Of a stretch of 32,000 nt of DNA, positions 16,673 to 31,595 are shown piece by piece. Location of the stretch: NCBI GenBank assembly GCA_017475555.1, contig JAFVFL010000044.1, positions 684 to 32,683 on the forward strand. The letters run 5' to 3'. The notes under the pieces were generated by a model. That model searched no databases. It was not told the DNA's origin and was given only the letters and a program-made list of their open reading frames with translations. How positions within the stretch are numbered: position 1 is the stretch's first letter; each line of letters starts with the position of its first letter. This DNA is from Ruminococcus sp. (GTDB taxonomy: Bacteria; Bacillota; Clostridia; Oscillospirales; Ruminococcaceae). Made by a program: the position numbers and the translations under genes.

Positions 16673-16714
16673 AGAGTGAACCTCCTCTCATAGTGATAAT
16701 ATACAATTGACAAA

Positions 16715-18415: not shown

Positions 18416-18432
18416 AAAACATCTCTCCTTTC

Positions 18433-19821
18433 CTATGGCATCAGCAGCTTTACACCCGTAAAGCCGCGCAGGTTGTAGCTGCTTGTGTGTTGTCTCTTGC
18501 TTTGGATCCTGTCTTGGTTCACAAGGCGAAATGCCTGTGAAAAGCCTGTGGTGTCGCAAATACTCGTCTGGTAGTGTGCGGTAAATGCCTCGAACAGCTC
18601 CTGCGAGGTTGTGAATGCACTCTGATCTGTGAAGTCGCAGTAGGTCTGCGAAAAGTCACGGACAGCGTTGTATTCCGTATTGACAGGCGATGTGAGGATC
18701 GTCTGGAGCTGGTCAAAGCGGTCATGTCCCGTGAATTGGTAATTGTTTGCCTTCAGCCGCAGATAATAGCGGAATGCCTCGGTCGCAACGGCATCCTTCT
18801 CACGCAGAAGCTTTTGTAGGATCATCGGATCCTGCTGTTCCTTCGGGATGCTGTACGGATAGGGAATGGTAACGAGTCGGCGCACAAATGCCTGGTCTAC
18901 TGCAGCATACGCCATACCGATGTTATAATTGCTTGCGATGGCGATCTTACATTTGCAGGTGAATTGTACCATTTCCCGATTCTTCCGATCGGCGGTCATA
19001 TCATCAAAGCCCGATGCAGATTTCAGAAAACCGATGCTCTCGGAGCTCAGGTTCACGGCGCCCTCATCCGCAGAATACTCTAAGCGGCAGTGCTGGATGC
19101 GGTGACGCCCGAAACGGCTGGTCATCGTCTTGATCGGCATACTGTCTACGGCTCCAGGGAGGAAGGTGCGCAGGAAGGACAGCTCTGTTGACTTCCCGTT
19201 ATTACCTGTCTCACCAAAGAGCGAGAAGATAGCTTTTGCATGATAATCGGAGGAAAGGACATAGCCCCAAAACTCCCAGTGACGGGCGATCAGCTCGGGG
19301 TCGCCACCCGAGATGATCGCAAGAAATGCATCGGCTGTCGGATGATAGAGCTGCCTATCAGGCAGATAGTTGGCATTGACATAGATCGTAGCAAAATAAT
19401 CGGACGGTATCACCTGTAAGGGCATACCGTTACGATTGGAGATTAGTCCGTTTTTGAAAACGGTATAGTCTTCACTGTCGGGGCCGCAGGGACTCTCACG
19501 AACACGAATCAGCACGGATTCAAGGAGCTGTCTGCAATGATTGGGCTTCAGAATGATGTTCTCTGACAGTGCATACTGATAGGCCAGGTTGCAAAAGCTA
19601 TCCTCATCCAAGGGTCGGTAAACAATACCGTTTAGCATATGCATCACGCCGTCAAATTTGCGGAAAAGCTGCTTATCATAAACGAGTGTGTCGGCAGTAC
19701 GGATGATATACCAGTCGAGCTCCTCTTTTCCCAGAATGCGAAGTGTTTTCTCGCCCTGTGCAAAGGTCGTGCCGTTATCTGTTTCGGGAGCCGCTGGCGA
19801 TTTTTGTAGACTTGTATCCAT
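18433..19821 (-). CDS. P4-family primase C-terminal / D5-type SF3 helicase NTPase; no separate primase catalytic domain seen
   Basis: Start is ATG 19821 (MDTSLQK) with AAGGGAG 8 nt upstream. A D5_N-like region (VFKNGLISNRNG..FLAIISGGDPELIARHWEFWGYVL) is followed by Walker A FGETGNNGKST and a Walker B-like YSADEG. The gene ends in TAG. Confidence 0.8.
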   Translation of the reverse strand: MDTSLQKSPAAPETDNGTTFAQGEKTLRILGKEELDWYIIRTADTLVYDKQLFRKFDGVMHMLNGIVYRPLDEDSFCNLAYQYALSENIILKPNHCRQLLESVLIRVRESPCGPDSEDYTVFKNGLISNRNGMPLQVIPSDYFATIYVNANYLPDRQLYHPTADAFLAIISGGDPELIARHWEFWGYVLSSDYHAKAIFSLFGETGNNGKSTELSFLRTFLPGAVDSMPIKTMTSRFGRHRIQHCRLEYSADEGAVNLSSESIGFLKSASGFDDMTADRKNREMVQFTCKCKIAIASNYNIGMAYAAVDQAFVRRLVTIPYPYSIPKEQQDPMILQKLLREKDAVATEAFRYYLRLKANNYQFTGHDRFDQLQTILTSPVNTEYNAVRDFSQTYCDFTDQSAFTTSQELFEAFTAHYQTSICDTTGFSQAFRLVNQDRIQSKRQHTSSYNLRGFTGVKLLMP

Positions 19822-19843
19822 ATGGTCATCTCCCTTCATATCG

Positions 19844-19872
19844 GGAGGGCAGCTCTGCCTGAGCCGCCCTCC
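19844..19872 (-). terminator. GC-rich hairpin at the boundary between the AT-rich cassette and the primase-type gene
   Basis: Minus strand reads GGAGGGCGGCTC-aggca-GAGCTGCCCTCC. The 12-bp stem has one G.U pair and no clear T run. It begins 11 nt after the stop codon of the 182-aa gene. Confidence 0.45.
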
Positions 19873-19882
19873 GTGTTTGGGG

Positions 19883-20431
19883 TTAGTCTTCGGTGTAAAC
19901 GGGGATGTAAATCAGTTTGACTGAACGTACCTCTATCCAGCGTATATATTGTTCCCAGTAGTATTTCGATGAAGCGTATCGATAATCTCCACCCATCTCA
20001 TATGTGGTTGCTTTGGATGGAAACAAACGGTGATACTCACAGATCAAATTCTTGACTTCATCAGAAGTGTCTGGTTTATCCAATAAAAGATCAAGAATAT
20101 ATGGATCTAAAACCGTTCTTAGTGTTGCTTTGCATAATTTTCTGATTCTTCTAAAAATGATTCCACATTGTTTTGCGCGGTCTTCCTGTTCAACTCTCTC
20201 TGTAAGTGCGCGGTCAAGCTGTTCTAATTCTTCGGGACACTCTTCGAGCGTCCACTTAGAATAGATGCTAACCTTAAAGTAAGAGAGCATACCAGGCTTT
20301 CTGAGGTGGAATTTCAACTCTTCGCCCTTCTTACGAACGAGATAGCCGTCAATTCCATATTCGTTCAGTTTGCTGATCACCTTCTTGTCAGCTGTATTGA
20401 GCTTCTGCTTAGTTTTGTAACAAATGATCAT
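19883..20431 (-). CDS. Hypothetical protein, 182 aa, no recognisable domain
   Basis: ATG 20431 lies 9 nt after AGGAGG; the TTG at 20440 directly abuts the SD. The gene is AT-rich and encodes a Lys/Glu-rich protein (MIICYKTKQKLNTADKKVISKLNEYGIDGYLVRKKGEELKF). Confidence 0.6.
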   Translation of the reverse strand: MIICYKTKQKLNTADKKVISKLNEYGIDGYLVRKKGEELKFHLRKPGMLSYFKVSIYSKWTLEECPEELEQLDRALTERVEQEDRAKQCGIIFRRIRKLCKATLRTVLDPYILDLLLDKPDTSDEVKNLICEYHRLFPSKATTYEMGGDYRYASSKYYWEQYIRWIEVRSVKLIYIPVYTED

Positions 20432-20594
20432 AATAATCAACCTCCTTAGTAATTAAATCATTATTGGGTTAGACAATCTTTAGGACTGTCCATTACAAAG
20501 AGTTTTGTGATTATCGGAAACCCGATAATTCTAAACAAACTAAGGTTTATAGCTCATAAGCTCACCTCCTATTCGATTTTCAAGTTTCATGTGC

Positions 20595-20623
20595 TTGCCA
20601 TTATCAGCATTTTGTGTTATAAT
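20595..20623 (+). promoter_or_regulatory. Near-consensus sigma-A promoter with extended -10, driving the 640-aa gene
   Basis: TTGCCA (20595-20600), a 17-nt spacer, then TGT-TATAAT (-10 at 20618-20623). It leaves a leader of about 180 nt before ATG 20809. Confidence 0.65.
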
Positions 20624-20808
20624 GGACTTTAGGTTCTACTTATCGGAACCTCGTTTTGCAGGTCTTGTTTCTCTGCATCTTTATCATACCACTTTTTTGA
20701 AAATTTGGCGATTTGTAACGGGTTTGCAAAATTGATTTTTCAGTCTTAATTTTTTGAAAAAGCCTTTTTGGCTTGATTCTGCCATTTTGAACGGGAAGGG
20801 AGGAAGCT

Positions 20809-22731
20809 ATGGCTAAGAAAAAACAGGAAAATTCCAAACTTGATCTGTATCGACAGAAGATGAGTGAACTAATCAAGGGGATTTTCGGATACAAGCAGAT
20901 TGATTTTGAGCCTAGGGGAGAGGATACTCCTAAATCAGTGACGATCAAGCTAAGACATAATGATTTGGTTCATTCATTTAGCCAAACAAGAATCCATCAA
21001 AGAAATTTTCGCATTCTGTTTCAGTACACATTTTCTCCACCTGATGGAACAACAGTTGATTTTTGTATTGGCAATCCCAATCTGAAAACTATTGAATATT
21101 CACGACAGGAATATATTCATACGATTCTTATAAACGCAATTCGCTTCTGTGTTGATGAGGAAACGCAGGAGAGTATTTTAAAAAACTATACGTTGCCGCT
21201 CAATAAATATGATGTTACCACACGTTCCATTCTTGATGTCATGGCAAACTATGATTCGATAAATGGTACACCTGTAATTTGTACGGCGGAACAAGTGAAG
21301 GCGTGTCAGGATAAGTTTGGCAATCAAACCCTACCTGCGGATCAGGCAGAAAGTGGTGCAACGCATCATTTTACGGATGAGGAAATCTTTCACGATCATC
21401 CTGAAGCAGAAGAAAGTTATCTTGGGTTAATCGGCAGAGCATTGGTAGACAGAATGCTCCCACTGTTTTTTGATGAAACTTTATCAGATGAGGCTTTTCA
21501 AAAACAGTATACAGAGGTGCTTTCAGACCTTAGTGAGCAGATAAAGGAAAAGCTTATTGAAGATGCAGAACGGATAGCGGTTGAACGCAAGCATAGGGCA
21601 GAGAGCATCAAGAAAATAATTCTTGTCGATCCTGCATATCAGTTTGACCGACCTGATATGCAGGTGCTGTATACCCCAGAGCAGGCTCCTGTTCTGACGG
21701 ATTGGCACGTTCCTGTTCAGCAATATATGAAGTATTGCAAACCAGAAATCAGGCAGGAGGATGTTAAAACATTTCTTTCCTGTTTTGCAAAGGGAAGACC
21801 ATATCCTTTTGCATTGGTTCATCCCGAAGCGCTTGAGCCTGTCATGGAAATGCCGATTTCCGACAGGGGCGTACCGTATCGGCAGGCGATGTTTGATGAC
21901 TTTCAGATAATCCACCTGACACAGGAGTATAACCCACAGTTTACACCATCCCTATTTGAGTACCTTGGTTCGCAGGATGAGTATATCCGTAAAGCAATCG
22001 AGAATATGAACGGTGAACAACTCGATACATACTGGAAATCTGTGTTTGCATCAGTTGAGGATCTTCTCTCCCGTGTATTCCGACATTCTGATGATTTTAC
22101 TGCACTTATTCAGGAAGTGCCACTTTCAAGAAAGGAATATCCTTATCAGGAGGAATACTATCGAAAGCAGGGAAAGGGATATCAGGATTATCTTGCGGAA
22201 TATCTAGATCAAAAAATAGATGGACTTGAAAGCTGGATGGAAGCATTCCATCAGAAGCATCTGTTGGAGCTGGAGGAGAATACTTTTTCAGCTTTTTTGT
22301 CACAGGATCTGATTTATCAACACTACGTTCTTGGGTGGGATGGATTGGCTGAACCGTACAGGGATATGCTTGGTGAAGACTATCTTGCAGGTGATGGAAT
22401 AAAGCAGCTTGCTTATATATGCATTCCACTGATTGGAGAACTTGCATTAGAATTAGAAGAAAATGCTGCCAGTATTGCAGAGGCTGCCAAGGCAAGAATG
22501 TCAGTCAACCAGTTTCAGCATCATCTGTATCTTGTCAAAAAGTATCTGACTGATGTAGGGTTGGATAAAGCAATTCAGCAATGGAACGAGACCTATCAAA
22601 CAGCCAGGAGACGTGGTACAAACTCCATTCATGATTTTCGTGGGCTGCTGTATTATGCACAGCAGAATGGAAATTTGTTCCAAAACTTGAAAGATGCACT
22701 GGAATCTTATGTCGGATATCTTGAAGCATAA
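20809..22731 (+). CDS. Hypothetical protein, 640 aa, acidic, predicted mostly helical, no recognisable domain
   Basis: ATG 20809 with GGGAAGGGAGG upstream. The long open frame lies in an AT-rich block. I could find no NTP-binding, nuclease, HTH or transmembrane motifs by eye. Confidence 0.75.
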   Translation: MAKKKQENSKLDLYRQKMSELIKGIFGYKQIDFEPRGEDTPKSVTIKLRHNDLVHSFSQTRIHQRNFRILFQYTFSPPDGTTVDFCIGNPNLKTIEYSRQEYIHTILINAIRFCVDEETQESILKNYTLPLNKYDVTTRSILDVMANYDSINGTPVICTAEQVKACQDKFGNQTLPADQAESGATHHFTDEEIFHDHPEAEESYLGLIGRALVDRMLPLFFDETLSDEAFQKQYTEVLSDLSEQIKEKLIEDAERIAVERKHRAESIKKIILVDPAYQFDRPDMQVLYTPEQAPVLTDWHVPVQQYMKYCKPEIRQEDVKTFLSCFAKGRPYPFALVHPEALEPVMEMPISDRGVPYRQAMFDDFQIIHLTQEYNPQFTPSLFEYLGSQDEYIRKAIENMNGEQLDTYWKSVFASVEDLLSRVFRHSDDFTALIQEVPLSRKEYPYQEEYYRKQGKGYQDYLAEYLDQKIDGLESWMEAFHQKHLLELEENTFSAFLSQDLIYQHYVLGWDGLAEPYRDMLGEDYLAGDGIKQLAYICIPLIGELALELEENAASIAEAAKARMSVNQFQHHLYLVKKYLTDVGLDKAIQQWNETYQTARRRGTNSIHDFRGLLYYAQQNGNLFQNLKDALESYVGYLEA

Positions 22732-22854
22732 GTTTCTTCTTAAATGGCCATATACCGCAAATTTGTTTTTACCCAAAAATAAATTTTCCCGTCCCTCTCT
22801 ATATAGGAAGAGACAAAAAATAATTTTGAAAGCAGCAGTAGGACAGAAAGCCAT

Positions 22855-22981
22855 TGTACCACGGTTCCACGTCTTAACGAGGTTCGGAGCTGTTTTTGCT
22901 GCAATCCAAAATATGTGCAAACCCTTCCAAGACGCGGAACCGTGGAACATCGCCCCTGACGGCTTTGAGACCGTCAGGGGC
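22855..22981. other. Two adjacent stem-loops between the convergent 640-aa gene and the amidotransferase gene (bidirectional terminator or boundary element)
   Basis: The first stem has 21-nt arms TGTACCACGGTTCCACGTCTT (22855-22875) and AAGACGCGGAACCGTGGAACA (22929-22949), with 2 mismatches and a 53-nt loop. The second is a perfect 10-bp hairpin, CCCCTGACGG-ctttgaga-CCGTCAGGGG (22953-22980). Confidence 0.5.
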
Positions 22982-22989
22982 ATTGTCAT

Positions 22990-23940
22990 TCATATCTCCC
23001 CGCACATCATCGCCTCATGGAACATGAGCGGGTCGAAGAGAAACTCCTCAATTTCGTCATAGGTATACCCCAGATCCAACAGACGGCGCACCTCACCCTC
23101 CGTCACGCCGAAGTAGCCGCAGATGTCAAGCAGCTGTAACACACTGTCCTCCTCGGAGGTGCAGCCAACCTCCTCCCATCCGCAAGAATCATACCTTGTC
23201 CATCTGTAGTGCGGGGTGTACAGCATCGGGCGGAAGGCATCACGGTCGATGCTGCCGTCGGGATGGATGCACAGCAGGTCGCCCTCCTCTGCGTCGATGA
23301 TCTCATAGTGCATCCAGCGGAGTGGGCTGCGTTTCAGTGCTGCGGTCATGATGTCGGGCGTGGAGCTGTACAGGTAGAGCCCCAGCTCGGGAAAATGAAT
23401 GAGATAGAGTGGGTTATCCCCCTTCACAAACCAGAGGTTGTTATCGGCATCCAGCACCGTGAAGGTGAAATTCCCGTTCACTGCCTCTGCCATATTGCGG
23501 AGTGAATCAAAATTCAGCCTGCGCTCTGCCTCGATAAGCTGCACCGCAATATAGCTGTCGGTCTCAATTTTGGTCGAAGGCAGATGCCGCTCACGGCGAA
23601 GGATACTGTCATTATACAGCACGCCATTGTGCGCCAGTGCGAACGCTTTGCCAGCTGTACCTCGGAAGGGATGGTTGTTGTAATTTTGCTTCTCGCTGCC
23701 CTGCGTGGTGAAGCGGGTATGCCCCATCACAGCGCTTGTCCCGTTCGGAATGCGCAGGCGCAGCTTGTGGGCGGGCTTTGGGCGCTTGTAGATGGTCAGC
23801 TGACCTCCCTGATTGTAGGCGATGCCGCAGGCGTGGCTCCCCCTGACCTCGGAGGCATTCGCCAGCGCCTGCAAGAGCTTTTGCAGAATCTTCACAGGGA
23901 GCTTGTGTCCGTAGTCCAGAAATCCAAAAAGTGCGCACAT
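22990..23940 (-). CDS. Class-II (Ntn-type) glutamine amidotransferase domain protein with a C-terminal extension
   Basis: Start is ATG 23940, giving MCALFGF with the catalytic Cys directly after the initiator Met. GAGGAGG lies 10 nt upstream. Other motifs are SHACGIAY, GHTRFTTQG, NNHPF and LAHNGVLYN. The ATG lies 1 nt after the amidoligase TAA. Confidence 0.85.
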   Translation of the reverse strand: MCALFGFLDYGHKLPVKILQKLLQALANASEVRGSHACGIAYNQGGQLTIYKRPKPAHKLRLRIPNGTSAVMGHTRFTTQGSEKQNYNNHPFRGTAGKAFALAHNGVLYNDSILRRERHLPSTKIETDSYIAVQLIEAERRLNFDSLRNMAEAVNGNFTFTVLDADNNLWFVKGDNPLYLIHFPELGLYLYSSTPDIMTAALKRSPLRWMHYEIIDAEEGDLLCIHPDGSIDRDAFRPMLYTPHYRWTRYDSCGWEEVGCTSEEDSVLQLLDICGYFGVTEGEVRRLLDLGYTYDEIEEFLFDPLMFHEAMMCGEI

Positions 23941-23941
23941 A

Positions 23942-25036
23942 TTACATTTCCTCCTCGTTTGTGATGGCTTCGTTGACATAGAGCCGCCGTTCCTTCATGT
24001 ATTGAATCAGCTCGGGCTCCGTGATGCGGCTGACGAATTCCGACCATGACAGTGCCTTCAGATCATACTCGCACAGGCTCATGGCAGTTTGGCAAATATG
24101 CTCCACAAGCTGCAAGGTCGCAAGGAGCGTGTTGAGCTTCAGCGTGCCGCGGAACAGTCTGAATTCGATGGTGGCGCGGTTGCAGAGATTGACAGCGACA
24201 TATCGGTTGTAATCCGATTTTGCCTTGTCATAGAGCTTTTTCGGGTCGTGCTCGTATCCTCTGCGGGCTGCCCAGCGGTTCATGTTGTATTCGGTGCGGC
24301 GGGAGAATTTCAGGAGCTCATTCCAATGCACCTCCACAAAGAACAGGATCTTGCTGATCGTGTCCTCCTGTTCGATTTCACTGTCGCCCAGACCGTCACG
24401 GCTGACATGAATATGCAGACCACAGGTGCCTGTCTGATGGCTGCGGTAGCCCATCTGGACAGCACGGTGCAGGATGTCTGCCCAGCAGAACTCGCTAAGA
24501 TGGTAGTCAAGGCTCATCGGATGTGTGACAATTTCAAAGCCGTCGTCAATACTTCCGTCCGACTTGATGTAGATGTGCTCGGAATTACGGTTGCCGATTT
24601 CGAGCAGCTCCTCAGCGTTGTCGTTGTCGTGACCGCCGTTGTCCACCTCCAGCTCGACACCGAGAAAACGCTTGCCCTGTCCGTACAGAATCGGGGTAGG
24701 CTTGTAGCTGTACTCACGAATGGCGCTGCTGTGCTTTTCGTAGCAGTTAAAGCAGAAATCATAGCCATCGGCATAGTACGAATCATCGTTATGCACGATT
24801 CTGTCACAGTCATAGCAGCGGGTGTAGTGGTCATCGTAGCAGTGCTGGCACAGAAAATGCTCGCTGTCGGATACGGCATTCTCGCTGTAGATGAAAGTCC
24901 CGCAGCGGTCACAGCTGCCGCACTCGTCCTCGTAGCAGCTTGGACATACAACATCATCCTCGACGAGATAATAATCATCGTCGTTCACCTCGCCCCCACA
25001 GCAAGCGCAAACGAGGTTCTCTCTGGTTTCGTCCAT
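23942..25036 (-). CDS. Amidoligase (glutamine-synthetase-like COOH-NH2 ligase, Pfam Amidoligase_2 type) with an N-terminal multi-zinc-ribbon module
   Basis: 364 aa with AAGGAGG upstream. The N-terminal ~100 aa carries seven CxxC pairs (CACC, CPSC, CGSC, CDRC, CQHC, CYDC, CFNC). The core motifs are FLGVELEVD, DGFEIVTHP, TCGLHIHVS and TIEFRLFRGT. Confidence 0.75.
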   Translation of the reverse strand: MDETRENLVCACCGGEVNDDDYYLVEDDVVCPSCYEDECGSCDRCGTFIYSENAVSDSEHFLCQHCYDDHYTRCYDCDRIVHNDDSYYADGYDFCFNCYEKHSSAIREYSYKPTPILYGQGKRFLGVELEVDNGGHDNDNAEELLEIGNRNSEHIYIKSDGSIDDGFEIVTHPMSLDYHLSEFCWADILHRAVQMGYRSHQTGTCGLHIHVSRDGLGDSEIEQEDTISKILFFVEVHWNELLKFSRRTEYNMNRWAARRGYEHDPKKLYDKAKSDYNRYVAVNLCNRATIEFRLFRGTLKLNTLLATLQLVEHICQTAMSLCEYDLKALSWSEFVSRITEPELIQYMKERRLYVNEAITNEEEM

Positions 25037-25059
25037 AATTGTTCCTCCTTTTGGACATG

Positions 25060-25091
25060 AAAAATGCCCCTGCCGTCATTGGCAGGGGCAT
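25060..25091 (-). terminator. Intrinsic terminator/attenuator inside the operon, between the DUF960-like gene and the amidoligase
   Basis: Minus strand reads ATGCCCCTGCC-aatgac-GGCAGGGGCAT followed by TTTT. The 11-bp stem is perfect. It lies 20 nt after the stop at 25112 and 24 nt before ATG 25036. Confidence 0.65.
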
Positions 25092-25111
25092 CGGTTTTGG
25101 TGGATATACGG

Positions 25112-25396
25112 TCAATACTCCTCTGCAAGGAGCATGGTGCTGTAGCTCTCGGAGTCGATGACATACAGCTTGGCGGTGATGGGCTTTTCGGTCGGGATGA
25201 TGTATTCCATGCGGTATGCGGGCTGTTCAGATGTATGCGAGATTCTCTGCATTTCTCCCATAGGATCCAGCTTGAAAACCTGAAAATAATCCCGCTCCTC
25301 GGGCAGACGGTCGATGCAGCTCCACAGAAAGAGCTGCAATTCGAGGGGAATTTGTGCATCTACTCCTCTGGTCAGAAAACGTTGGTTGTCAAACAC
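25112..25396 (-). CDS. DUF960-like small protein (94 aa)
   Basis: GTG 25396 lies 6 nt after GGAGGTG and gives (M)FDNQRFLTRGVDAQIPLELQLFLWSCIDRL..YFQVFKL..KLYVIDSESYSTMLLAEEY. I recall this pattern from the Firmicute DUF960 family. The start overlaps the upstream stop by 8 nt. Confidence 0.55.
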   Translation of the reverse strand: MFDNQRFLTRGVDAQIPLELQLFLWSCIDRLPEERDYFQVFKLDPMGEMQRISHTSEQPAYRMEYIIPTEKPITAKLYVIDSESYSTMLLAEEY

Positions 25397-25652
25397 GGCT
25401 ATCACCTCCGTTTGTGAGCAATGCAGCTGTAATTCTGGCACCGAGCTTCATCCCTGATTTGATGGCGGAATTGTAGATTGCCGAGGACAGCTTTCCGAAT
25501 AGTGCATCCAGCTCCATTGCTTGCTGATGCGGTAGATTCTGATCGCAATATTCGTGGAACTGTGCTGATGCCTGGTTGTGCGCCTGACTCTGCATGAGCT
25601 CCGCATCCAGTTCGTCCGCAAATCTCTTGGCGATTGCATCCAATACGTCCAT
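25389..25652 (-). CDS. Hypothetical small helical protein (87 aa), first gene of the amidoligase operon
   Basis: ATG 25652 with AAAGGAGG 8 nt upstream. The C-terminal part AIKSGMKLGARITAALL resembles small accessory proteins of clostridial integrative elements, though my recollection of that family is weak. Confidence 0.55.
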   Translation of the reverse strand: MDVLDAIAKRFADELDAELMQSQAHNQASAQFHEYCDQNLPHQQAMELDALFGKLSSAIYNSAIKSGMKLGARITAALLTNGGDSRV

Positions 25653-25834
25653 TTGTGTGACCTCCTTTTCAGGTTTTTATGCTCCCTATGTTCCGCCTTT
25701 CGGCGGTTTTCCTATGCGGTCTACCATAATCGTATCATCAGTACCTGGCATAGTCATGATAATAATATACAACCCAGAATTTGAATTCGTGCAGCACTGC
25801 TCTGCACGGTGTCATAGAAGAGTCAGGGGCTTGA

Positions 25835-25878
25835 CACAAAAATAGAGGTATCAGGAAATACAGTGTCCTGATACCTCT
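25835..25878 (-). terminator. Rho-independent terminator on the minus strand, upstream of the amidoligase operon
   Basis: Minus strand reads AGAGGTATCAGGA-cactgtatt-TCCTGATACCTCT followed by ATTTTTGTG. The 13-bp stem is perfect. No annotated minus-strand gene ends here. Confidence 0.55.
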
Positions 25879-26144
25879 TTCTGGATCCACTGCCCCGCTT
25901 ACGCTCTCTTCCGCAAATCCAGATTGTGTCTATAGATAGATATAATTTGATGATGTCACCAGTAGAAATGTCGTTTTTTGAATGTGGTCGATTTTTCATG
26001 AAACCGACAAAAAGCTTTATTGATATGTTATATGGAATTGAAACAAATTATCATTTCTCATATTGATTTGGCAAAGACGAACTATCTGCCGTAGGCGTGT
26101 GGCCGCGCACAGCGCTCCCACGCCACAGCATCTATAAAACAGGA

Positions 26145-26207
26145 AAAATGGGGGTTTTTGTACAATCCCCTATTATATATAATGGCTTGTACATTTTCCC
26201 CCATTTT
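26145..26207. repeat. Imperfect 21-nt inverted repeat flanking an AT-rich TATATATAAT core
   Basis: AAAATGGGGGTTTTTGTACAA (26145-26165) and TTGTACATTTTCCCCCATTTT (26187-26207). The outer 10 nt and the GTACAA/TTGTAC parts pair, while the T-tracts between them do not. It lies about 120 nt upstream of the second helicase gene. Confidence 0.6.
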
Positions 26208-26327
26208 ACTCTGTGAGAGGCGAGCGCAGCGAAGCAGAGCCTCTCACGGAGAAAATACCGTCCTTGCCAATTTTATCAATGAAACAATGAACAATTATGT
26301 TAAAAGATAATGCAAGGAGGCGAATCT

Positions 26328-28574
26328 ATGAAACGAACCATCACACTCCATCATCAAAGACAAGGGTATACAGATAGGATGTTCAATATTGCCGTCAAAT
26401 ACGGAATCCACTATAAAATGATTGAAGAGGAAAATGCCAATGTTATGGTGTTTACGCTGCGGGAGGAGATTGAGGATGTAAGGACAACAGAGTATTTTCA
26501 AGAGCTGTTATGCAGGATATTTGAGACAGAACCCGCAAATTCTATTTATCCTGCATCTGATGTGGATGTGAGTATTTACACGATTCTATTGGCTTTTGTT
26601 GATATGATGCGAAACGAATACAATGACAAGCACTATCGGGAGGCTCTAAAAAGATTTCATGATGCTCGTCATATAGATATGATCGGAAGTTTACCTTCGA
26701 TTCATAAATTGAAAAACGGGAGCTATTCTCTTACTCCAATCACCCATGAACAGGTAGGATACGAGGTCATTTCTATTTTGTCACCAGAGAAATTGAAGGG
26801 GAATACACAGGCGCAGTCAAAGGCAAGAGATAAACATAAAAGGGCTGTGTATCGGAATTTTGATTGGGATAATCTCTATGAATGCTGCAATTTGTATCGA
26901 GAATTTTGTGACGGTGAGGAGCTTTACGATGCAGAACAGGTCTTTTTACTTGCGAGAAATATATGCGGTGCGGAGAATGGGAAAAAGCAGTTCCTTAAAA
27001 TCATGAATGAGCAGCATTCTGACAGCATTTTTGCTGATTTGAATTGGAAGGAAATTCTGACGACGATTATCAAGGGGAATGTTCCGCTTGCATCATGTCA
27101 GGAATGTGCGTATTGTGAGGAATGTCAGCACACCGAAAATATGCTGTCTACCGCACAGCCTCAGCGCTTTGAGGTCAGGAAGATCAGAGATGAAAAATAT
27201 GTCTCACTGGAGGAGGTCAGCGATGATCTGCACGCAGCCTTCGACAGAGCCATCAGCGCACAGGATAACCACGTTCGCATCATCAAAGCACAGACGGGTG
27301 CGGGAAAAACGGAGACCTATTTGCAGTGCATGAAGCATAGCGAAAAGCCACTGCTTATCGCCGTTCCTACGCATGAACTCAAGAAGGAAATTTATCGGAA
27401 ATCCGTGGCAATGGGGATAGAGAATATCTGCTGTACGCCAGATCTGGAGGAGTACCAGCTGTCCGAGGAACTGCGACAGGAGCTGAATAACCTGTATGCA
27501 ATTGGGGCTGGAGCATATGTACTGAAATACTTGACAGAGCAATTATTACTGTTAAAGCATCATGATTCTGATTATGTCAATATCTCTCAGTATCTGGACA
27601 ATTTGAAGCGCTCCACCCGTTCAACAGGTCATATCATCACAACACACGCAAGACTTCTGTACATGGCGCAGGAGGTATTGAACAGCCATGAAGTCATCAT
27701 TGACGAGGATATTTTGAGAACGGCAATGAATACAAATTGTGTCAGCATGAAAGACCTGCATCATATTCGTAACATGGGTGTTTTCAAGGGCGATGCAAGG
27801 TGCAGGATCGAGTATCTATGCAGAAATCGTGGGTATCGGAAGCTGCACAAAATAGACCTTGATAAGGATGAAAAACTTCTTGGCAATTTGGGGAATATCA
27901 GCTCTGATATTTGCGGAGTATTAGGTGCGGAATATGTCTATATCACAGACGCTATGGTGCATTACTTATCGGATATTCCATTGCCATCAGGGAAGCTGAC
28001 AATTCTCTCTGCGACCGCTGATGCAGAGCTGTACCAGCGTTTTTATCCAGACAGACAATTTGATTTCTACAAGTGCAAAAAAGCAAAGTATATGGGGAAA
28101 ATCAGGCAGCATACGGATTGCAGCTACAGTAGTTATATTCTGGAAAAGCATCCAGAAAAGGTGAGCGCATTATATCAGACGGCGAAGGAGGATACGGTCA
28201 TTACCTTCAAGGGCATTGAGCAGGAATTCCACACAAACTATCACTTTGGAAATGTGGAGGGGCTGAACCTATTGAGCGGGAAGAATTTGTCTGTCATCGG
28301 TCTGCCAAACAAGCCCGATTTTGTGTACTGCCTGTATGGAATGCGTGCTGGACTGGAATTGAAAAAATCACCGAATATGTACGTTCACAGGATTGAGCAA
28401 GGCGGCTACAGCTTTTCTCTCAACACGTTTCAGGATTCTACTTTGCAAAGGATCCAGACCTGGATGCTGTCCTCACAATTAGAGCAGGCTGTCGGTCGGG
28501 CGAGGCTTTTGCGGAATGACTGCATGGTGACGGTCTATGCGGGGTTTCCTGTGGAACAGGCGGTTTTTAATTAA
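26328..28574 (+). CDS. Superfamily-2 DEAD-like helicase with a ~320-aa N-terminal region containing a CxxCxxCxxC cluster
   Basis: ATG 26328 (MKRTITL) with AAGGAGG upstream. The motifs are I KAQTGAGKTETY, Ia LIAVPTHELKKEI, II VIIDEDI, III ILSATAD and VI QAVGRARLLR. The Cys cluster reads CQECAYCEECQH. Confidence 0.8.
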   Translation: MKRTITLHHQRQGYTDRMFNIAVKYGIHYKMIEEENANVMVFTLREEIEDVRTTEYFQELLCRIFETEPANSIYPASDVDVSIYTILLAFVDMMRNEYNDKHYREALKRFHDARHIDMIGSLPSIHKLKNGSYSLTPITHEQVGYEVISILSPEKLKGNTQAQSKARDKHKRAVYRNFDWDNLYECCNLYREFCDGEELYDAEQVFLLARNICGAENGKKQFLKIMNEQHSDSIFADLNWKEILTTIIKGNVPLASCQECAYCEECQHTENMLSTAQPQRFEVRKIRDEKYVSLEEVSDDLHAAFDRAISAQDNHVRIIKAQTGAGKTETYLQCMKHSEKPLLIAVPTHELKKEIYRKSVAMGIENICCTPDLEEYQLSEELRQELNNLYAIGAGAYVLKYLTEQLLLLKHHDSDYVNISQYLDNLKRSTRSTGHIITTHARLLYMAQEVLNSHEVIIDEDILRTAMNTNCVSMKDLHHIRNMGVFKGDARCRIEYLCRNRGYRKLHKIDLDKDEKLLGNLGNISSDICGVLGAEYVYITDAMVHYLSDIPLPSGKLTILSATADAELYQRFYPDRQFDFYKCKKAKYMGKIRQHTDCSYSSYILEKHPEKVSALYQTAKEDTVITFKGIEQEFHTNYHFGNVEGLNLLSGKNLSVIGLPNKPDFVYCLYGMRAGLELKKSPNMYVHRIEQGGYSFSLNTFQDSTLQRIQTWMLSSQLEQAVGRARLLRNDCMVTVYAGFPVEQAVFN

Positions 28575-28648
28575 AAAAAACGTAACATAAAAGTAAAAGA
28601 AATCCGATGGTGCATGATGTGACATCTCGGTAGAAGGAGAAAATTATT

Positions 28649-29488
28649 ATGGAATATATCGAAAATGCAAGACCATTCGTAAAGTGGGCAGGAGGAAAAA
28701 GACAGCTCCTGCCCACGCTGACAGAGCTGCTTCCGAAGGAGCCAATTTCCGTCTATTGTGAACCGTTCCTGGGAGGAGGTGCAATGCTGTTTCATTTGCA
28801 GCCAGAGGTCGCTTTTGTGAATGACCTGAACAGTGAGCTTATCAATGCCTATAACGTAATCAAGAATCAGGCTGATGCGCTGATTGAAACTTTGAAAACC
28901 TACGAAAATACGAAGGAATTTTTCTATGAGATAAGGAATCTTGACAGGGATTTACAGATATTTTCTGCGCTTACGGAGGTGCAGAGAGCAGCAAGGTTTA
29001 TCTACCTCAACAGGACTTGCTTTAACGGATTGTACCGAGTGAATCAGAAGGGGCAGTTCAATGTATCTTTTGGAAATTATCCTGCCCCGAATATTGTCAA
29101 TGCAGAAGGGTTGTATGCGGTCAGGGACTATCTGAATCGGGCGCAGGTGCATTTTATGTCAGGGGATTTTGCGTACATATTAGAGCAGCTTCCCTGTGGT
29201 GCTTTCGTGTATTTCGACCCGCCTTATCTGCCCGATATTGGCTCTTCCAGCTTTACAGCCTACAACAGCAAATGCTTCTCAATGATGGACCATATCAGAC
29301 TGCATTGGTGGTGTGAGCAGCTCACAAAGCGTGGAATCAAATTTATGCAGTCCAATTCCTACACACCGATAATTGCAAGCCTGTACAGCTGCTATGATGT
29401 TCAGCTTGTACAGGCAAGGCGTTCTATCAATTGCAACGGGGATGGGAGAGGCGCAGTGAATGAAGTAATTATTCGTAATTACATATGA
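28649..29488 (+). CDS. dam: Dam-family N6-adenine DNA methyltransferase (probably GATC-specific), orphan
   Basis: The motifs are FVKWAGGKRQLLP, EPFLGGGAM, NRTCFNGLYRVN and VYFDPPY. GAAGGAGA lies upstream. No adjacent endonuclease gene. Confidence 0.9.
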   Translation: MEYIENARPFVKWAGGKRQLLPTLTELLPKEPISVYCEPFLGGGAMLFHLQPEVAFVNDLNSELINAYNVIKNQADALIETLKTYENTKEFFYEIRNLDRDLQIFSALTEVQRAARFIYLNRTCFNGLYRVNQKGQFNVSFGNYPAPNIVNAEGLYAVRDYLNRAQVHFMSGDFAYILEQLPCGAFVYFDPPYLPDIGSSSFTAYNSKCFSMMDHIRLHWWCEQLTKRGIKFMQSNSYTPIIASLYSCYDVQLVQARRSINCNGDGRGAVNEVIIRNYI

Positions 29489-29655
29489 TATGCTGCCATT
29501 TCCGCTTTTGCAGAAAATCAGAACAATGCGAATAAATCCCGCTGTGGAAATTATAAATGATGATAACTTACAGAATGCTGCAAATTTTCAAACGAAGGAC
29601 ATAACATAATGATAAATGGCAGCCATTAAATTTCAAAAATCAGGGAGGAATTTTT

Positions 29656-29841
29656 ATGACAGACAATAACGAAATCATGCAGATAGAAGAGGTGATGGAG
29701 TATCTCAATATCGGGAAAAACACGATGTATGGACTTTTGAAAAGCGGAGAGCTGAACGCCTTCAAAATCGGAAAGGTTTGGAAGATTCCGAGAAAGTCGG
29801 TGGAGGAGTATGTGGAAAAGGCATTGAAGAAGAAAACATGA
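29656..29841 (+). CDS. Excisionase-family HTH DNA-binding protein (61 aa)
   Basis: MQIEEVMEYLNIGKNTMYGLLKSGELNAFKIGKVWKIPRKSVEEYV matches the excisionase-family HTH pattern. GGGAGGA lies upstream. Confidence 0.75.
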   Translation: MTDNNEIMQIEEVMEYLNIGKNTMYGLLKSGELNAFKIGKVWKIPRKSVEEYVEKALKKKT

Positions 29842-29847
29842 TTAGGC

Positions 29848-29878
29848 GCAGTCGGGCATTGCCTGGCTGCATTTTTTT
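29848..29878 (+). terminator. Rho-independent terminator after the first HTH gene
   Basis: GCAGTCGGGC-att-GCCTGGCTGC forms a 10-bp stem including two G.U pairs, followed by ATTTTTTT. Confidence 0.7.
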
Positions 29879-29961
29879 CGATTCAATGCAAAAATAATAC
29901 AACATAAAAGTAATGGTCAGAAAATAATCTTATACAATTCCATAGGGAAGGAGGGAACGTC

Positions 29962-30183
29962 ATGAGTGACAAAATCTTTGTGATACACCAAAAGGACGTA
30001 TTCACAGTAAAAGAGGCAGCGGAATATCTGACAGTCTGCCCGAAAACGCTATATCATCTTATCGAGTGCGGAGAATTGAAGGCTGCTAAAATCGGCAGCA
30101 GATACAAGCTGAAGGCTGAGGATTTAATCTGTTACATCAATCAGAAAAAGGAGAAGAATCAACATGAGAAACATCAATCTTAA
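29962..30183 (+). CDS. Second excisionase-family HTH DNA-binding protein (73 aa)
   Basis: FTVKEAAEYLTVCPKTLYHLIECGELKAAKIGSRYKLKAEDLICYI. GGAAGGAGGG lies upstream. Confidence 0.7.
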   Translation: MSDKIFVIHQKDVFTVKEAAEYLTVCPKTLYHLIECGELKAAKIGSRYKLKAEDLICYINQKKEKNQHEKHQS

Positions 30184-30862
30184 CGACTTTACCGCCCCTG
30201 TACAGCTAACGATTATCGCAACCTATGCCTATCTTCGTGGCAAGCAGTCACAGGGCAAGCCGCTTCTGCCAGCGGAAGTCACATTGCTCAGCGGCAGGCT
30301 ACAGGATTCCCCGCTTTGCATGATGCTGGGCAGCAATGCAGAGAATGGATATTTGCAGACGGCAATGAATTTAGAGGGAAACATCTGCTTGATGGCGGCA
30401 AATCTGATTGCACGGTATGGCGCAGGATTACAGCTTGATTTGAATAGTCTGTGTCAGGAGATGCTACCCAAAATACCGCTTGGTGCAGCGTGTTCCTACT
30501 CTGAAATACGGACTGACGGGACAATGCTTATTCTGAGCAGAATTGATACAGGTTACGGCACTGTGGTCAAGTGCTATCAGTACCGCATAGCTTCCTTTGA
30601 TGAAATGCTGGATATCCTGCTCAGTTATGATGACGAACTGGAAGCAATTCTTGAGAATTTGAAGGACTATCCTGATGCAAGCAGCTGGATGGAGTCCCTT
30701 GAGGAAGACCTTCTGAATGCGTATTGTTATCATATTTTTGGAAAAGATTATGAGAGTGTGTATCAGAATGATGTGAGAAAGCTTCCGCCGATGCTGCTGT
30801 ATCAGCTTGGAGCGGATATCCGTGAGAATCTGAGGAGGATTGAGGAAGCGTTTTATTTGTGA
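30164..30862 (+). CDS. Hypothetical protein, 232 aa, no recognisable domain
   Basis: ATG 30164 with AAAGGAGAAG upstream. It overlaps the preceding HTH gene by 20 nt, which suggests translational coupling. Confidence 0.6.
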   Translation: MRNINLNDFTAPVQLTIIATYAYLRGKQSQGKPLLPAEVTLLSGRLQDSPLCMMLGSNAENGYLQTAMNLEGNICLMAANLIARYGAGLQLDLNSLCQEMLPKIPLGAACSYSEIRTDGTMLILSRIDTGYGTVVKCYQYRIASFDEMLDILLSYDDELEAILENLKDYPDASSWMESLEEDLLNAYCYHIFGKDYESVYQNDVRKLPPMLLYQLGADIRENLRRIEEAFYL

Positions 30863-30904
30863 TAGTACGTTAGTGGATGGTAGAAAATTCGAGAAGGACT
30901 GTTA

Positions 30905-31213
30905 TTACTTGCTCAATCTGTTGATGAGTCCCAATACCATCAGAAGGTCTGTATCATTCAATTGATTCAGCCCATCCAGAGCCTTTTGTATCAATTCAGG
31001 GTGTTCTGTTTTGGTGTTGAAAAACTCGGACGGTGTGATACCAAAATACTCACAGATAGCAAACAACTCTGACAGTGGTGGGAGCGATTTCCCCGATGAA
31101 ATATTATAAATATAGCCGCGGCTGTGACCCAAGTCATAGCTCATCTGATATTCGGACACGCCCTTCTTCAAGCGAAGCTGTGTAATCCTGTCTCTGACAA
31201 AATCTTCGTACAT
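30905..31213 (-). CDS. XRE/Cro-C1 family HTH transcriptional regulator (102 aa)
   Basis: The real start is ATG 31213 (MYEDFVRDRITQLRLKKGVSEYQMSYDLGHSRGYIYNISSGKSLPPLSELFAICEYFGITPSEFF). The 88 upstream codons of ORF 30905..31477 are Cys/Ile-rich and look non-coding. Confidence 0.8.
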   Translation of the reverse strand: MYEDFVRDRITQLRLKKGVSEYQMSYDLGHSRGYIYNISSGKSLPPLSELFAICEYFGITPSEFFNTKTEHPELIQKALDGLNQLNDTDLLMVLGLINRLSK

Positions 31214-31363
31214 AAAAATCACCTCTATATCTATGATACAGCAGGCACAATCAAATTTACTCAAAGAAAATATGTGATTTCTATTGAAATGTCCAATGAT
31301 ATATGTTATAATATACTTGTGATAGTTGCAGGAGCTTGATACGACAACGATTAGAAAACAAAT

Positions 31364-31389
31364 CCTCCTGTACCAGAGTGTACAGGAGG
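31364..31389 (-). terminator. Hairpin in the XRE/integrase intergenic region; T-rich tail on the minus strand
   Basis: CCTCCTGTAC-cagagt-GTACAGGAGG is a perfect 10-bp stem. The minus strand continues ATTTGTTTTCT. Confidence 0.4.
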
Positions 31390-31595
31390 GAATCTTTCGC
31401 AAAATACTGCAATCTGCGATAGGACAAATTGCACAAGTCATTATTAACAGTATATCATAATTCGGGCGAAAAGTCAATAGGCTTTGTCGGTTTTCAGATA
31501 TTTTGCAGCTGAAAAAGATAATCCAACGGCACTTAAAACCCGAATTGAAACATATAGTTCGTCAGAAATCTGGTCTGTAGAATAGGAGTGAGGAT

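Follow-up and report, generated by a model that had tools for sequence, protein, structure and literature searches.

An amidoligase and class II glutamine amidotransferase gene pair with a LIM-like zinc-finger region on small integrative elements of Ruminococcus

Introduction

Amidoligase_2 enzymes and class II glutamine amidotransferase (GATase)-like proteins are reportedly paired in phages and mobile elements, as Iyer, Abhiman, Burroughs and Aravind are said to have predicted in 2009; in the Pfam description of PF12224, the 2009 reading of the partner is said to be a 'glutamine amidotransferase-like thiol peptidase'. Such pairs are found in phage phiEco32, in LUZ24-like phages, where they lie in the early region by published annotation, in mycobacteriophage Marvin (gp105/gp106) and on a plasmid of M. 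abscessus; in the podovirus MW202733 the ligase gene is followed by a 304-aa ORF, which was not scanned. Later papers credit the 2009 prediction with a cell-envelope, superinfection-blocking role for the phiEco32 pair (PMC11318856, PMC10580990). In some viral contigs, amidoligase/amidotransferase genes co-occur with thymidine-hypermodification genes (PMC8989533), and one paper proposed them as nitrogen-metabolism auxiliary genes (PMC10945688). The first-pass annotation of the DNA studied here had stated that no substrate or role of the pair was shown experimentally; indeed, no experimental characterisation of this family pair was found in the literature, and a paper from 2023 says that the functions 'remain to be explored' (PMC10580990).

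Here, we describe such a pair in a 32,000-nucleotide stretch of Ruminococcus sp. DNA (the window). It is a further member of this known, uncharacterised enzyme pairing and as such of moderate interest. The ligase family, the partner family, the gene order and the mobile habitat are the same as in the LUZ24-like, phiEco32 and Marvin pairs, but the Ruminococcus subfamily adds an invariant LIM-like triple zinc finger and a conserved DUF960 gene set apart by a terminator-like hairpin. Unlike the LUZ24-type cluster, which has ATP-grasp, COOH-NH2_lig and AIG2/GGCT genes, the Ruminococcus module is without them.

Results

Four ORFs were confirmed on the minus strand between positions 22990 and 25652. 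They encode an acidic 87-aa protein (25389..25652), the first gene of the unit and preceded by a good Shine-Dalgarno (SD) sequence, a DUF960 protein (25112..25396), a 364-aa amidoligase (23942..25036) and a 316-aa class II (Ntn, Cys1) GATase (22990..23940). The genes had been taken for one operon of four tightly packed members. The four genes and their coordinates held, but a 75-nt spacer with a hairpin parts DUF960 from the amidoligase, and the unit is two translationally coupled gene pairs split by a conserved terminator-like hairpin, not a single tight operon. The hairpin (25063..25092, minus strand) has a GC-rich stem of 12 bp followed by a T-run, lies ahead of the SD sequence of the amidoligase and appears, from its sequence, to be terminator- or attenuator-like. 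Equivalent hairpins were found in about 53 of 55 distinct related loci, with many differing stem sequences; the fold z-score in related loci had a median of -3.3 and was below -2 in 45 of 57. The order of DUF960, hairpin and enzymes resembles that of substrate-then-enzyme operons. The unit ends with an 11-bp GC-rich hairpin immediately past the GATase stop, between convergent genes (22952..22981). On the other side, an intergenic region of 657 bp (25653..26309) with promoter-like hexamers and several inverted repeats separates the unit from a divergent gene for a 754-aa helicase-like protein.

Genes for an integrase, an excisionase-type HTH protein, a primase-helicase and a repressor were found in the window, in keeping with the mobile-element setting that had been proposed. 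The suggested association with conjugative elements needs narrowing, since no conjugation genes were found in the window element and the relatives are mostly small integrative mobilizable elements. About 90 related Ruminococcus/Oscillospiraceae loci were surveyed, and residue conservation was read from 42 ligase and 41 GATase sequences. The carriers are small integrative elements, often mobilizable. In 25 of 83 related loci, genes for an RHH protein and a MobA/VirD2-type relaxase take the place of the divergent helicase-like gene, and the spacer equivalent to 25653..26309 in these relaxase loci is therefore a candidate oriT region. In several relatives the module adjoins the integrase at the element end, a frequent location of cargo genes, and in four Ruminococcus loci it is followed by DUF1643.

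The survey of homologous neighbourhoods bore out the pairing as near-universal: the GATase gene follows the ligase gene in 80 of 89 testable copies. The nine exceptions arise from ligase genes duplicated in tandem (ligase-ligase-GATase), from frameshifts or from wider or overlapping spacing, and in eight of them a GATase ORF lies further downstream; for the ninth, the second ligase copy of locus L028, no GATase match was found within the remaining 1,051 nt of the contig. DUF960 is present in 56 of the 60 loci with adequate flanks and is absent beside the ligase-GATase pair in Marvin and mycobacterial plasmids. No conserved third enzyme was found in the module neighbourhoods scanned. The hosts of the zinc-finger subfamily are so far all Gram-positive or mycobacterial.

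The 87-aa protein had been counted as an operon member, but its gene occurs in only about 14 of the about 90 related loci and is a facultative, not a conserved, member of the unit. It matched no credible family in Pfam, NCBIfam or PHROG; its homologues have the motif AGMKLGA(R/K)I in common at the C-terminus and are found only in a subset of loci, upstream of DUF960. The assignment of the second gene to DUF960 was borne out by Pfam PF06124 with 88 bits (E=6e-25, cut-off 25) over profile positions 1-94 of 94. Its true start is probably the GTG at 25396, giving 94 aa and an overlap of 8 nt with the 87-aa gene, because the homologues are 94-95 aa long and open with MFxNQRY. The protein ends with the invariant tail MLLAEEY-COOH, and an [E/D]Y-COOH end was present in 125 of 150 family representatives. 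The AlphaFold2 (AF2) model (pLDDT 84) has one helix and a five-stranded sheet, with the EY tail at low confidence (flexible); the sole PDB relative is 2r41 from E. faecalis, of unknown function (TM 0.70). A giant protein of C. difficile has DUF960 as its C-terminal domain. The tail is kept in Staphylococcus SCCmec, Bacillus and Clostridium copies without a ligase nearby, and outside the Ruminococcus loci DUF960 adjoins SAUGI, RadC and DUF1643, typical establishment genes. The SAUGI-DUF960-DUF1643 block of staphylococcal SCCmec is likewise part of an integrative element, beside recombinases, and its DUF960 has an MLLxEEY-COOH end, but the block contains neither amidoligase nor GATase.

The 364-aa protein had been assigned to Amidoligase_2 from the motifs GVELEVD, GFEIVTHP, GLHIHVS and IEFRLFRGT, which were all confirmed. 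The window protein itself scored 21.4 bits (E=2.6e-4) against PF12224, just below the Pfam cut-off of 22; nevertheless, the assignment is supported, since all 42 aligned homologues matched the family at E<=0.01 (best E=2e-8) and the modelled fold agrees. Further, phrog_2443 'amidoligase enzyme' matched at 5e-10, and many database homologues carry a precomputed PF12224 match or the NCBI name 'amidoligase family protein'. The AF2 model (pLDDT 87, pTM 0.73) has a glutamine-synthetase (GS)-type fold: Foldseek matched it with probability 1.00 to 1tt4/1r8g (YbdK), 9qur (GmaS) and 3ln7, and further to GS, Dop and PafA, with GmaS found also via 7cql. In the catalytic domain (residues ~120-335, 24032..24679, minus strand), E128, E130, D160, E168, H208, H210, R246, R247, R278, E291 and R293 are invariant in 42 sequences; these acidic, His and Arg residues are probably metal-, phosphate- and carboxylate-type active-site residues, with individual roles assigned by inference. 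The ligase looks catalytically intact and is predicted to form amide bonds in an ATP-dependent manner. YbdK/GCS2, GmaS and GS, the best Foldseek matches, have the catalytic fold and the acidic/His/Arg active-site residues in common with it, but they are only 12-15% identical, have neither a zinc finger nor a GATase partner and use free glutamate and small amines.

The N-terminal part of the ligase (residues 10-98, 24743..25009, minus strand) is a zinc-finger region of three CxxC-x17-CxxC units. CxxC motifs start at residues 10, 31, 39, 42, 63, 74 and 95, so that the seven pairs counted in the first-pass annotation are obtained only if the overlapping C39xxC42xxC45 is counted twice. Twelve cysteines, arranged as six CxxC pairs with a period of 32 aa, are invariant or nearly so in the 42 homologues and indicate three zinc sites, whereas C39 is unconserved; all ligands are Cys, with no His or Asp ligand in the three-finger region. 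The family profile of the region matched LIM proteins (CRP1, E=3e-5), and Foldseek found the LIM domains of LMO2 and PINCH. Pfam LIM (PF00412) was matched by 17 of 42 homologues (best 2.8e-6); the window protein scored 17.7 bits against a cut-off of 22.9, its three all-Cys fingers corresponding to 1.5 LIM units. Residues 1-105 carry a net charge of -21. The resemblance to LIM domains and this charge argue against nucleic acid as the bound partner and point to a protein. Hence, of the earlier suggestion of about three zinc ribbons for a macromolecular target, the three zinc sites stand, a protein target is favoured and nucleic acid is disfavoured.

The GATase gene starts exactly 1 nt past the ligase stop, as had been noted (gag gag gaa atg TAA t ATG tgc gca, ATG at 23940), and its SD sequence sits within the last ligase codons. 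The class II assignment was likewise sound: the N-terminus is MCALFGF, and the protein scored 43.4 bits with GATase_6 (cut-off 27), 33.3 bits with GATase_7 (cut-off 25) and 23.4 bits with the YafJ/EgtC-type GATase_4 (cut-off 23). Its nearest solved relatives are PurF and GFAT/GlmS. Its alignment with the class II enzymes GlmS, PurF and AsnB runs from Cys1 over the whole glutaminase domain, with the N-terminal domain of GlmS aligning to residues 1-180 and all glutamine-binding residues kept. In those enzymes the glutaminase is fused to a synthase, whereas the window GATase is a polypeptide by itself and has a conserved acidic helical module at the C-terminus (~residues 265-316). M1 and C2 are invariant in 41 sequences, as are R33, H74, R76, T78-G81, N88-P91, H104-N105-G106 and T127-D128-S129. 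With Cys1, the R-x-T-T-Q-G glutamine-binding loop, the HNG oxyanion motif and TDS, every glutaminase residue is kept and the enzyme looks catalytically intact.

Discussion

In our view the best explanation, to which we give a probability of roughly 35%, is that amidoligase and GATase make up a single enzyme of two subunits that forms amides in a glutamine-dependent manner, and that small integrative elements carry it as an accessory module. The Cys1 subunit would hydrolyse glutamine via a gamma-glutamyl thioester and pass the ammonia to the ligase, which with ATP would phosphorylate a carboxylate, most likely that of a glutamyl-type side chain or of a C-terminus, and convert the acyl-phosphate to the amide. 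The acidic LIM-like array would recruit a protein rather than DNA or RNA as the substrate, with DUF960 and its flexible -E-Y-COOH tail or a basic host protein as the candidates. A leaky terminator would keep DUF960 in excess over the two enzymes, and the role may be establishment or counter-defence when the element enters a cell.

For such an enzyme speak the conservation of the ligase active-site residues, the zinc cysteines and the GATase catalytic set, the ligase fold established by AF2 and Foldseek, a zinc region suggestive of a protein partner, and a GATase whose nearest matches, the glutaminase domains of PurF and GlmS/GFAT, belong to true amidotransferases. The genes are tightly coupled and nearly always paired, the pair recurs on a plasmid and in phages beyond the Ruminococcus host group, and DUF960 is linked to it in a substrate-then-enzyme-like layout. 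A role in establishment is favoured by the integrative or mobilizable carriers, the relaxase beside the module in part of the loci and the company that DUF960 keeps elsewhere. Against DUF960 as the substrate, the EY tail is family-wide, also where there is no amidoligase, and the pair occurs without DUF960, so that DUF960 is not a proven substrate. Besides, transcription of the module leads away from the putative oriT spacer, which gives no ground for presuming that the genes are expressed early from the single strand of DNA that is transferred.

The glutamine-derived ammonia logic of the first-pass annotation is one of two comparably supported readings. To our knowledge, the GATase of characterised ammonia-donating class II amidotransferases is always fused to the synthase, and EgtC, the characterised stand-alone relative, is a gamma-glutamyl amidohydrolase. 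The ligase may, instead of amidating, link free glutamate through its gamma-carboxylate to an amine, be it that of a lysine, an N-terminus, a polyamine or another small amine. The Cys1 protein would then donate no ammonia but act as a thiol amidohydrolase on the gamma-glutamyl group, taking it off or processing it, as in EgtA/EgtC, PuuA/PuuD and BtrJ/BtrG; this we regard as possible, if doubtful. In essence, it corresponds to the reading reportedly given to the pair in 2009. The closest structural relatives of the ligase (YbdK/GCS2, GmaS, GS and GshF) all use free glutamate, which speaks for gamma-glutamyl ligation and against the amide-forming enzyme, as does the separate GATase polypeptide, and the GATase_4 match fits an EgtC-type hydrolase. 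Other Amidoligase_2 members pair with or carry ATP-grasp ligases and AIG2/GGCT cyclotransferases, the latter also cleaving gamma-glutamyl amides, an association that suggests gamma-glutamyl conjugate chemistry rather than simple amidation. However, no solved EgtC-type protein is as similar to the GATase as are the PurF/GlmS glutaminase domains. To add the group only to take it off again would be futile without an intermediate step, for which the module conserves no third enzyme, and the tight 1:1 translational coupling suits an obligate complex.

The resemblance of the ligase to PafA and Dop, GS-fold enzymes which act on the gamma-carboxyl or amide of a protein C-terminal Glu/Gln, raises the idea of Pup-like tagging, with the C-terminal Glu/Tyr carboxylate of DUF960 joined to target lysines and the Cys1 protein as a processing or de-tagging hydrolase. 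The flexible -E-Y-COOH tail, the position of DUF960 upstream of a possibly leaky terminator and its synteny with the enzymes would suit a tag, but we consider this unlikely: the tail is conserved in ligase-free copies, actinobacterial phages and plasmids have the pair without DUF960, and in C. difficile DUF960 ends a giant protein. Membership in the Pup/PafA/Dop system is ruled out, since the match is at fold level (probability 0.6-0.9, weak E of ~0.015-0.09), and pupylation has a disordered GGQ/GGE tag and a second GS-fold enzyme where here there are a folded DUF960 ending in EY and an Ntn GATase partner. Equally, MurT/GatD, which amidates lipid II in a glutamine-dependent manner, is, like the enzyme proposed for our pair, a two-protein, glutamine- and ATP-dependent system for amidation of a glutamyl carboxylate, but MurT is built on a Mur-ligase fold and GatD belongs to the class I (triad) GATases. 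Neither protein is homologous, membership is ruled out and the formal analogy drawn earlier survives as an analogy only. This precedent, the hosts of the subfamily and the role attributed to the phiEco32 prediction (PMC11318856, PMC10580990) would suit an enzyme that amidates, or adds peptide to, peptidoglycan or teichoic-acid carboxylates and so blocks superinfection. We hold this to be very unlikely, because no signal peptide, membrane segment or cell-wall gene was found in or next to the module and a cytoplasmic, highly acidic LIM-like interaction domain has no obvious lipid II role. Least probable is cargo with another role, in anti-phage defence, a DNA hypermodification step or nitrogen metabolism. 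The position beside the integrase in several relatives and the published proposals (PMC8989533, PMC10945688) favour it, but no PADLOC model matched any of the four proteins, no 5-hmdU kinase, aGPT-Pplase or other hypermodification gene was found in the window or the conserved neighbours scanned, the early-region location in lytic LUZ24-like phages speaks against defence and the zinc-finger fusion against bulk metabolism.

A bolder proposal, which we rate as rather improbable, is that the acidic, DNA-mimic-like LIM array docks the ligase on the invariant EY tail of DUF960 or on a basic protein with which the host binds DNA or defends itself, and that the pair covalently rewrites a carboxylate (Glu to Gln, a C-terminal amide or a gamma-glutamyl isopeptide), thereby switching the protein off or on at entry into a new cell. 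If true, the Amidoligase_2/GATase pairs of phages and mobile elements would thereby gain their first function, which would amount to a new bacterial protein modification and an establishment or counter-defence weapon of a new kind.

Gene organization of the module

All four minus-strand genes that the first-pass annotation had placed at 22990-25652 were found there by ORF calls on the window. The first, which encodes 87 aa (25389-25652, minus strand), has a strong Shine-Dalgarno (SD) sequence and is followed by a gene whose product matched DUF960 (Pfam PF06124; 88 bits, E = 6e-25). Because the homologues of the latter have 94-95 aa and the N-terminus MFxNQRY, the true start of DUF960 is probably GTG 25396, which has GGAGGTG ahead and gives an 8-nt overlap with the 87-aa gene. 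The third gene encodes the 364-aa amidoligase (ligase; 23942-25036, minus strand), in which every motif quoted earlier was present, with CxxC at residues 10, 31, 39, 42, 63, 74 and 95. The fourth, encoding a 316-aa class II glutamine amidotransferase (GATase), was said to start 1 nt past the ligase stop with a Met-Cys N-terminus, and both features were seen in the junction sequence (gag gag gaa atg TAA t ATG tgc). In the final ligase codons, GAGGAGGAAATG codes for the EEEM tail of the ligase and at the same time serves as SD sequence for the GATase. A common signal in the acidic-hydrophobic C-terminal tails of ligase and DUF960 was rejected, since EEEM is encoded by this SD sequence and the Glu-Tyr (EY) tail of DUF960 is independent of the ligase. 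Two further long ORFs, one of 162 aa antisense to the end of a 640-aa gene (22501-22989, minus strand) and one of 323 aa antisense to the amidoligase (24089-25060, plus strand), lie within or antisense to genes that have homologues and look like by-products of base composition and not like genes.

DUF960 and ligase genes are separated by a 75-nt spacer in which a hairpin with a 12-bp GC-rich stem is followed by a T-run (25063-25092), ending ~20 nt ahead of the ligase SD sequence. The hairpin was found in about 52-53 of 55 distinct related spacers, and the fold z-scores of 57 related spacers had a median of -3.3, with z < -2 in 45. The stem sequences are widely divergent (GCCCTCCCG, GCCGCTCC, CCAGCCCC, GGGACACGG, GAGCCAGTCC and others) and the hairpin is nevertheless kept, indicating that the structure is maintained by compensatory change. 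These features suggest an intrinsic-terminator-like, leaky hairpin. Since the spacer leaves no room for a separate promoter, the enzyme genes would be expressed by read-through, which implies a read-through control of these genes and would give DUF960 in excess over the enzymes. Therefore, the tightly packed four-gene operon assumed before is better described as two translationally coupled pairs joined by a leaky, terminator-like hairpin. For the 87-aa gene, ORF and SD sequence are present, but it is not a conserved member of the module. A single-sequence search of all ORFs found its family in only ~14 loci, and an iterative HMM search of 30 ORFs directly 5′ of DUF960 recovered only 6.

Properties of the encoded proteins

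The proposed hmmscan of the ligase against Amidoligase_2 gave 21.4 bits for the window protein at a cut-off of 22, and PF12224 was matched by 42/42 aligned homologues (best E = 2e-8). Many of its 6,493 database relatives were already annotated as PF12224 or 'amidoligase family protein', the PHROG 'amidoligase enzyme' matched with 5e-10 and the full-length phage family phrog_16683 with 6e-96. On these profile matches, membership in Amidoligase_2 is secure at the family level. The AlphaFold2 (AF2) model of the ligase (pLDDT 87, pTM 0.73) matched YbdK/GCS2 (1tt4, 1r8g), gamma-glutamylmethylamide synthetase and bifunctional glutathione synthetase, further glutamine synthetases and Dop/PafA; as modelled, the fold is that of a glutamine-synthetase carboxylate-amine ligase. 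E128, E130, D160, E168, H208, H210, R246/R247, R278, E291 and R293 are invariant among the homologues, compatible with an active enzyme. Direct searches of the PDB with the ligase and DUF960 sequences yielded only noise.

Residues ~1-100 of the ligase form three CxxC-x17-CxxC units at a spacing of 32 residues, whose 12 cysteines are invariant or nearly so among the homologues; C39 is not conserved. Profile matches (CRP1, E = 3e-5; Pfam LIM in 17/42 homologues) and structural matches (LMO2, PINCH) mark this region as LIM-like. Its net charge over 105 residues is -21, the same as the median among the homologues. Of the macromolecular targets proposed before, the LIM-like character favours protein, whereas the charge speaks against nucleic acid; the array likely binds protein, or mimics DNA. 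Among predicted viral proteins, too, this combination of zinc fingers and ligase is found, and some bear the name 'LIM domain containing protein'.

The 316-aa protein is, as recognized from its MCALFGF start, a class II GATase: it matched GATase_6 (43 bits), GATase_7 and GATase_4, the alignment with the glutaminase domain of GlmS begins at residue 1, and Cys1 and all usual glutamine-binding and oxyanion positions are invariant among the homologues. Its nearest solved relatives by profile are PurF and GFAT/GlmS. The C-terminal ~80 residues comprise a variable linker and a conserved acidic helical module (CGYFGV..EEV..L...GYSYDEIEEFL), for which no family match was found.

The AF2 model of DUF960 (pLDDT 84) has one helix packed against a five-stranded sheet, with lower confidence for the final four residues; its only PDB relative is 2r41 from E. 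faecalis, a protein of unknown function (TM 0.70). All intact ligase-adjacent copies end with (L/F)(L/F)xxEY-COOH. When 1.84 billion cluster representatives were searched by profile, 1,229 DUF960 clusters were obtained, and among the best 150 of these 1,229 representatives (mutually ≤50% identical) 125 had an (E/D)Y C-terminus. The exact end M-L-L-x-x-(E/D)-Y-COOH was seen nearly everywhere in the sequences inspected, i.e. the last DUF960 codons of the window (25112-25123), the comparison loci L094-L097 and the family representatives P0361-P0510. The same end was found without a ligase nearby in S. aureus SCCmec (beside SAUGI and DUF1643), on B. cereus plasmids (beside RadC), on a C. butyricum megaplasmid and in a giant C. 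difficile protein; in the latter, encoded by plasmid pHSJD-312 (L097, 1-5306), which has >1,700 residues, DUF960 is the C-terminal domain and ends with MLLSSEY-COOH. Therefore, the EY tail belongs to the family as a whole and shows no specific co-evolution with the ligase. An invariant Glu-Tyr at the end of a tail predicted to be flexible suggests a docking or modification site; a description of this tail was not found in the literature.

Distribution and conservation of the gene pair

A scan of one genome per species revealed at least 455 relatives of the ligase, nearly all of them in Ruminococcus or other Oscillospiraceae. Several genomes contain multiple copies, such as R. flavefaciens FD-1 with at least three (on three contigs) and R. 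callidus ATCC 27760 with two sites. The fetched loci contained 95 ligase copies, 89 of which had enough downstream sequence to count, and a GATase gene follows directly 3′ in 80/89. The nine exceptions are ligase-ligase-GATase tandems (loci L016, L028, L033 and L036), frameshifted ligases and copies with wider or overlapping spacing, and in eight of them a GATase ORF lies further downstream; behind the second ligase copy of L028 the contig continues for only 1,051 nt, which gave no GATase match. The tandems encode diverged zinc-finger amidoligases (L016 5118-8369, L033 9977-13195, L036 9980-13252, L028 4985-7514). In L016, L033 and L036 a single GATase gene follows, and judged from this arrangement one glutaminase-type partner may serve two ligases. 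DUF960 is encoded in 56/60 loci with adequate flanks, directly upstream in 41 and sometimes downstream. Since DUF960, ligase and GATase are conserved across loci and the 87-aa family is not, these three form the core.

Outside this group, a ligase-GATase pair without DUF960 is present on a plasmid of M. abscessus and in mycobacteriophage Marvin (gp105 and gp106), where gp106 matched GATase_4 only weakly (19.1 bits, below the cut-off of 23). In podovirus MW202733 the ligase gene is followed by an ORF of 304 aa. A ligase-GATase fusion in Marvin was ruled out, since gp105 matched the ligase only and the GATase match is in the separate gp106. By published annotation, LUZ24-like phages have an amidoligase/GATase pair in the early region (PMC3890496).

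Genetic context

The element carrying the module starts with an integrase (14906-16399), adjoined by chromosomal glycoside-hydrolase, dockerin and regulator genes. The gene next to the integrase end (12271-14481, plus strand) encodes a hybrid regulator with a LacI-type periplasmic-binding domain, a GGDEF-like segment and an AraC HTH domain. An identical ligase is present on nine contigs, GCA_017484345.1 among them, and the four that reach beyond the integrase have the same element and the same flanking regulator gene. The integrase is followed by genes for an HTH_17 protein, an SNF2-type helicase, a DUF5906 primase-helicase, two proteins without assigned function and the module; beyond it lie genes for a 754-aa helicase-like protein, a Dam methyltransferase, further HTH_17 proteins and a repressor. 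Family searches found no conjugation or capsid genes in the part of the element within the window. By gene content, the layout is that of a satellite-like element or a mobilizable island. The element (14906-32000) continues in the comparison locus L001; its primase-helicase is of the DUF5906/D5 type and its HTH genes are excisionase-type. L001 has a second integrase beyond the repressor end and may contain two elements in tandem.

The 754-aa protein (26310-28574, plus strand) is encoded divergently from the module; apart from a Cys-rich stretch (CQECAYCEECQH), it shows only a weak match to the DEAD/ResIII P-loop. Its family is found divergently upstream in seven related loci (eight in all), at the position of the relaxase in other elements. 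The 640-aa protein (20809-22731, plus strand), encoded convergently with the module, had no credible match in Pfam, NCBIfam, PHROGs and PADLOC but is also encoded on other contigs that have the identical element (L001, L004, L005).

Downstream of the module, related loci most often encode a tyrosine integrase (in 37 loci), a small serine recombinase (in 20) or HTH_17 excisionases, and in 25/83 loci an RHH protein and a MobA/VirD2-type relaxase nuclease are encoded divergently, ~1 kb upstream of the module. Judged by these genes, the carriers are small integrative elements, often mobilizable, and the module probably adjoins an oriT spacer. A location in the leading region was set aside for mere adjacency, since the module is transcribed away from the candidate spacer; Samuel et al. 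2024 list neither family in their supplementary tables. A few loci have DUF1643 (L051 12314-12853), DUF4314 (L068 11097-11318) or DUF1848 (L053 6827-7759) beside the module. Together with SAUGI and RadC, these neighbours appear to constitute a pool of small establishment genes common to Firmicutes mobile elements.

Discussion

The module encodes two intact enzymes of defined folds which are near-universally co-encoded, translationally coupled and linked to DUF960 in mobile elements. We favour, with a probability of roughly one in three, that the pair is a heteromeric glutamine-dependent amidoligase that makes an amide on a protein bound by the zinc-finger array. Glutamine would be hydrolysed at Cys1 of the GATase and the ammonia handed to the ligase, which would phosphorylate a glutamyl-type or C-terminal carboxylate of the bound protein; ammonia and phosphorylated carboxylate would then give the amide. 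A different reading, reportedly the original one from comparative genomics in 2009, is that the ligase converts free glutamate into a gamma-glutamyl amide, which would be the substrate of the Cys1 protein, then a thiol amidohydrolase. In its favour, the structural neighbours of the ligase all act on free glutamate, other family members are partnered with gamma-glutamyl cyclotransferases, and EgtC, the characterised stand-alone class II relative, is a hydrolase. However, the GATase resembles PurF and GlmS and the module has no conserved intervening enzyme. We regard this reading as the main rival, nearly as probable as the one we favour.

The remaining explanations, i.e. Pup-like tagging by DUF960, modification of the cell wall and a function in bulk nitrogen metabolism, are less likely than these two readings. 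So is defence, for which PADLOC gave no matches, and so is DNA hypermodification, which was set aside since family searches of the window found none of the partner genes.

According to papers citing them, Iyer et al. 2009 predicted that phages and mobile elements pair Amidoligase_2 proteins with class II GATase-like proteins, and proteins of such pairs are routinely annotated as amidoligase/amidotransferase in databases. In line with the first-pass annotation, full-text literature searches found no experimental characterisation of the pair, and a passage of a 2023 paper states that the functions of amidoligase/GATase pairs remain to be explored (PMC10580990). The present analysis adds that the zinc-finger domain is LIM-like and highly acidic, that a DUF960-ligase-GATase triad is near-universal in Ruminococcus elements, that the terminator is conserved and apparently leaky, that the EY-COOH tail of DUF960 is family-wide and that the module has a mobilizable-element context.

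The gene calls as such would not surprise a specialist, and if the pair makes an ordinary small metabolite, the result is routine annotation. Annotation of such pairs, in phages, plasmids and integrative elements alike, goes back to 2009, and the subfamily described here is a clean experimental route into the question of their substrate: it abounds in Ruminococcus from rumen and gut, consists of only two enzymes and one small conserved partner, and has a dedicated, probably protein-binding domain that could serve as bait. Identification of the substrate would give a function to thousands of mobile-element genes and could reveal a new covalent modification of proteins or metabolites in the conflict between element and host.
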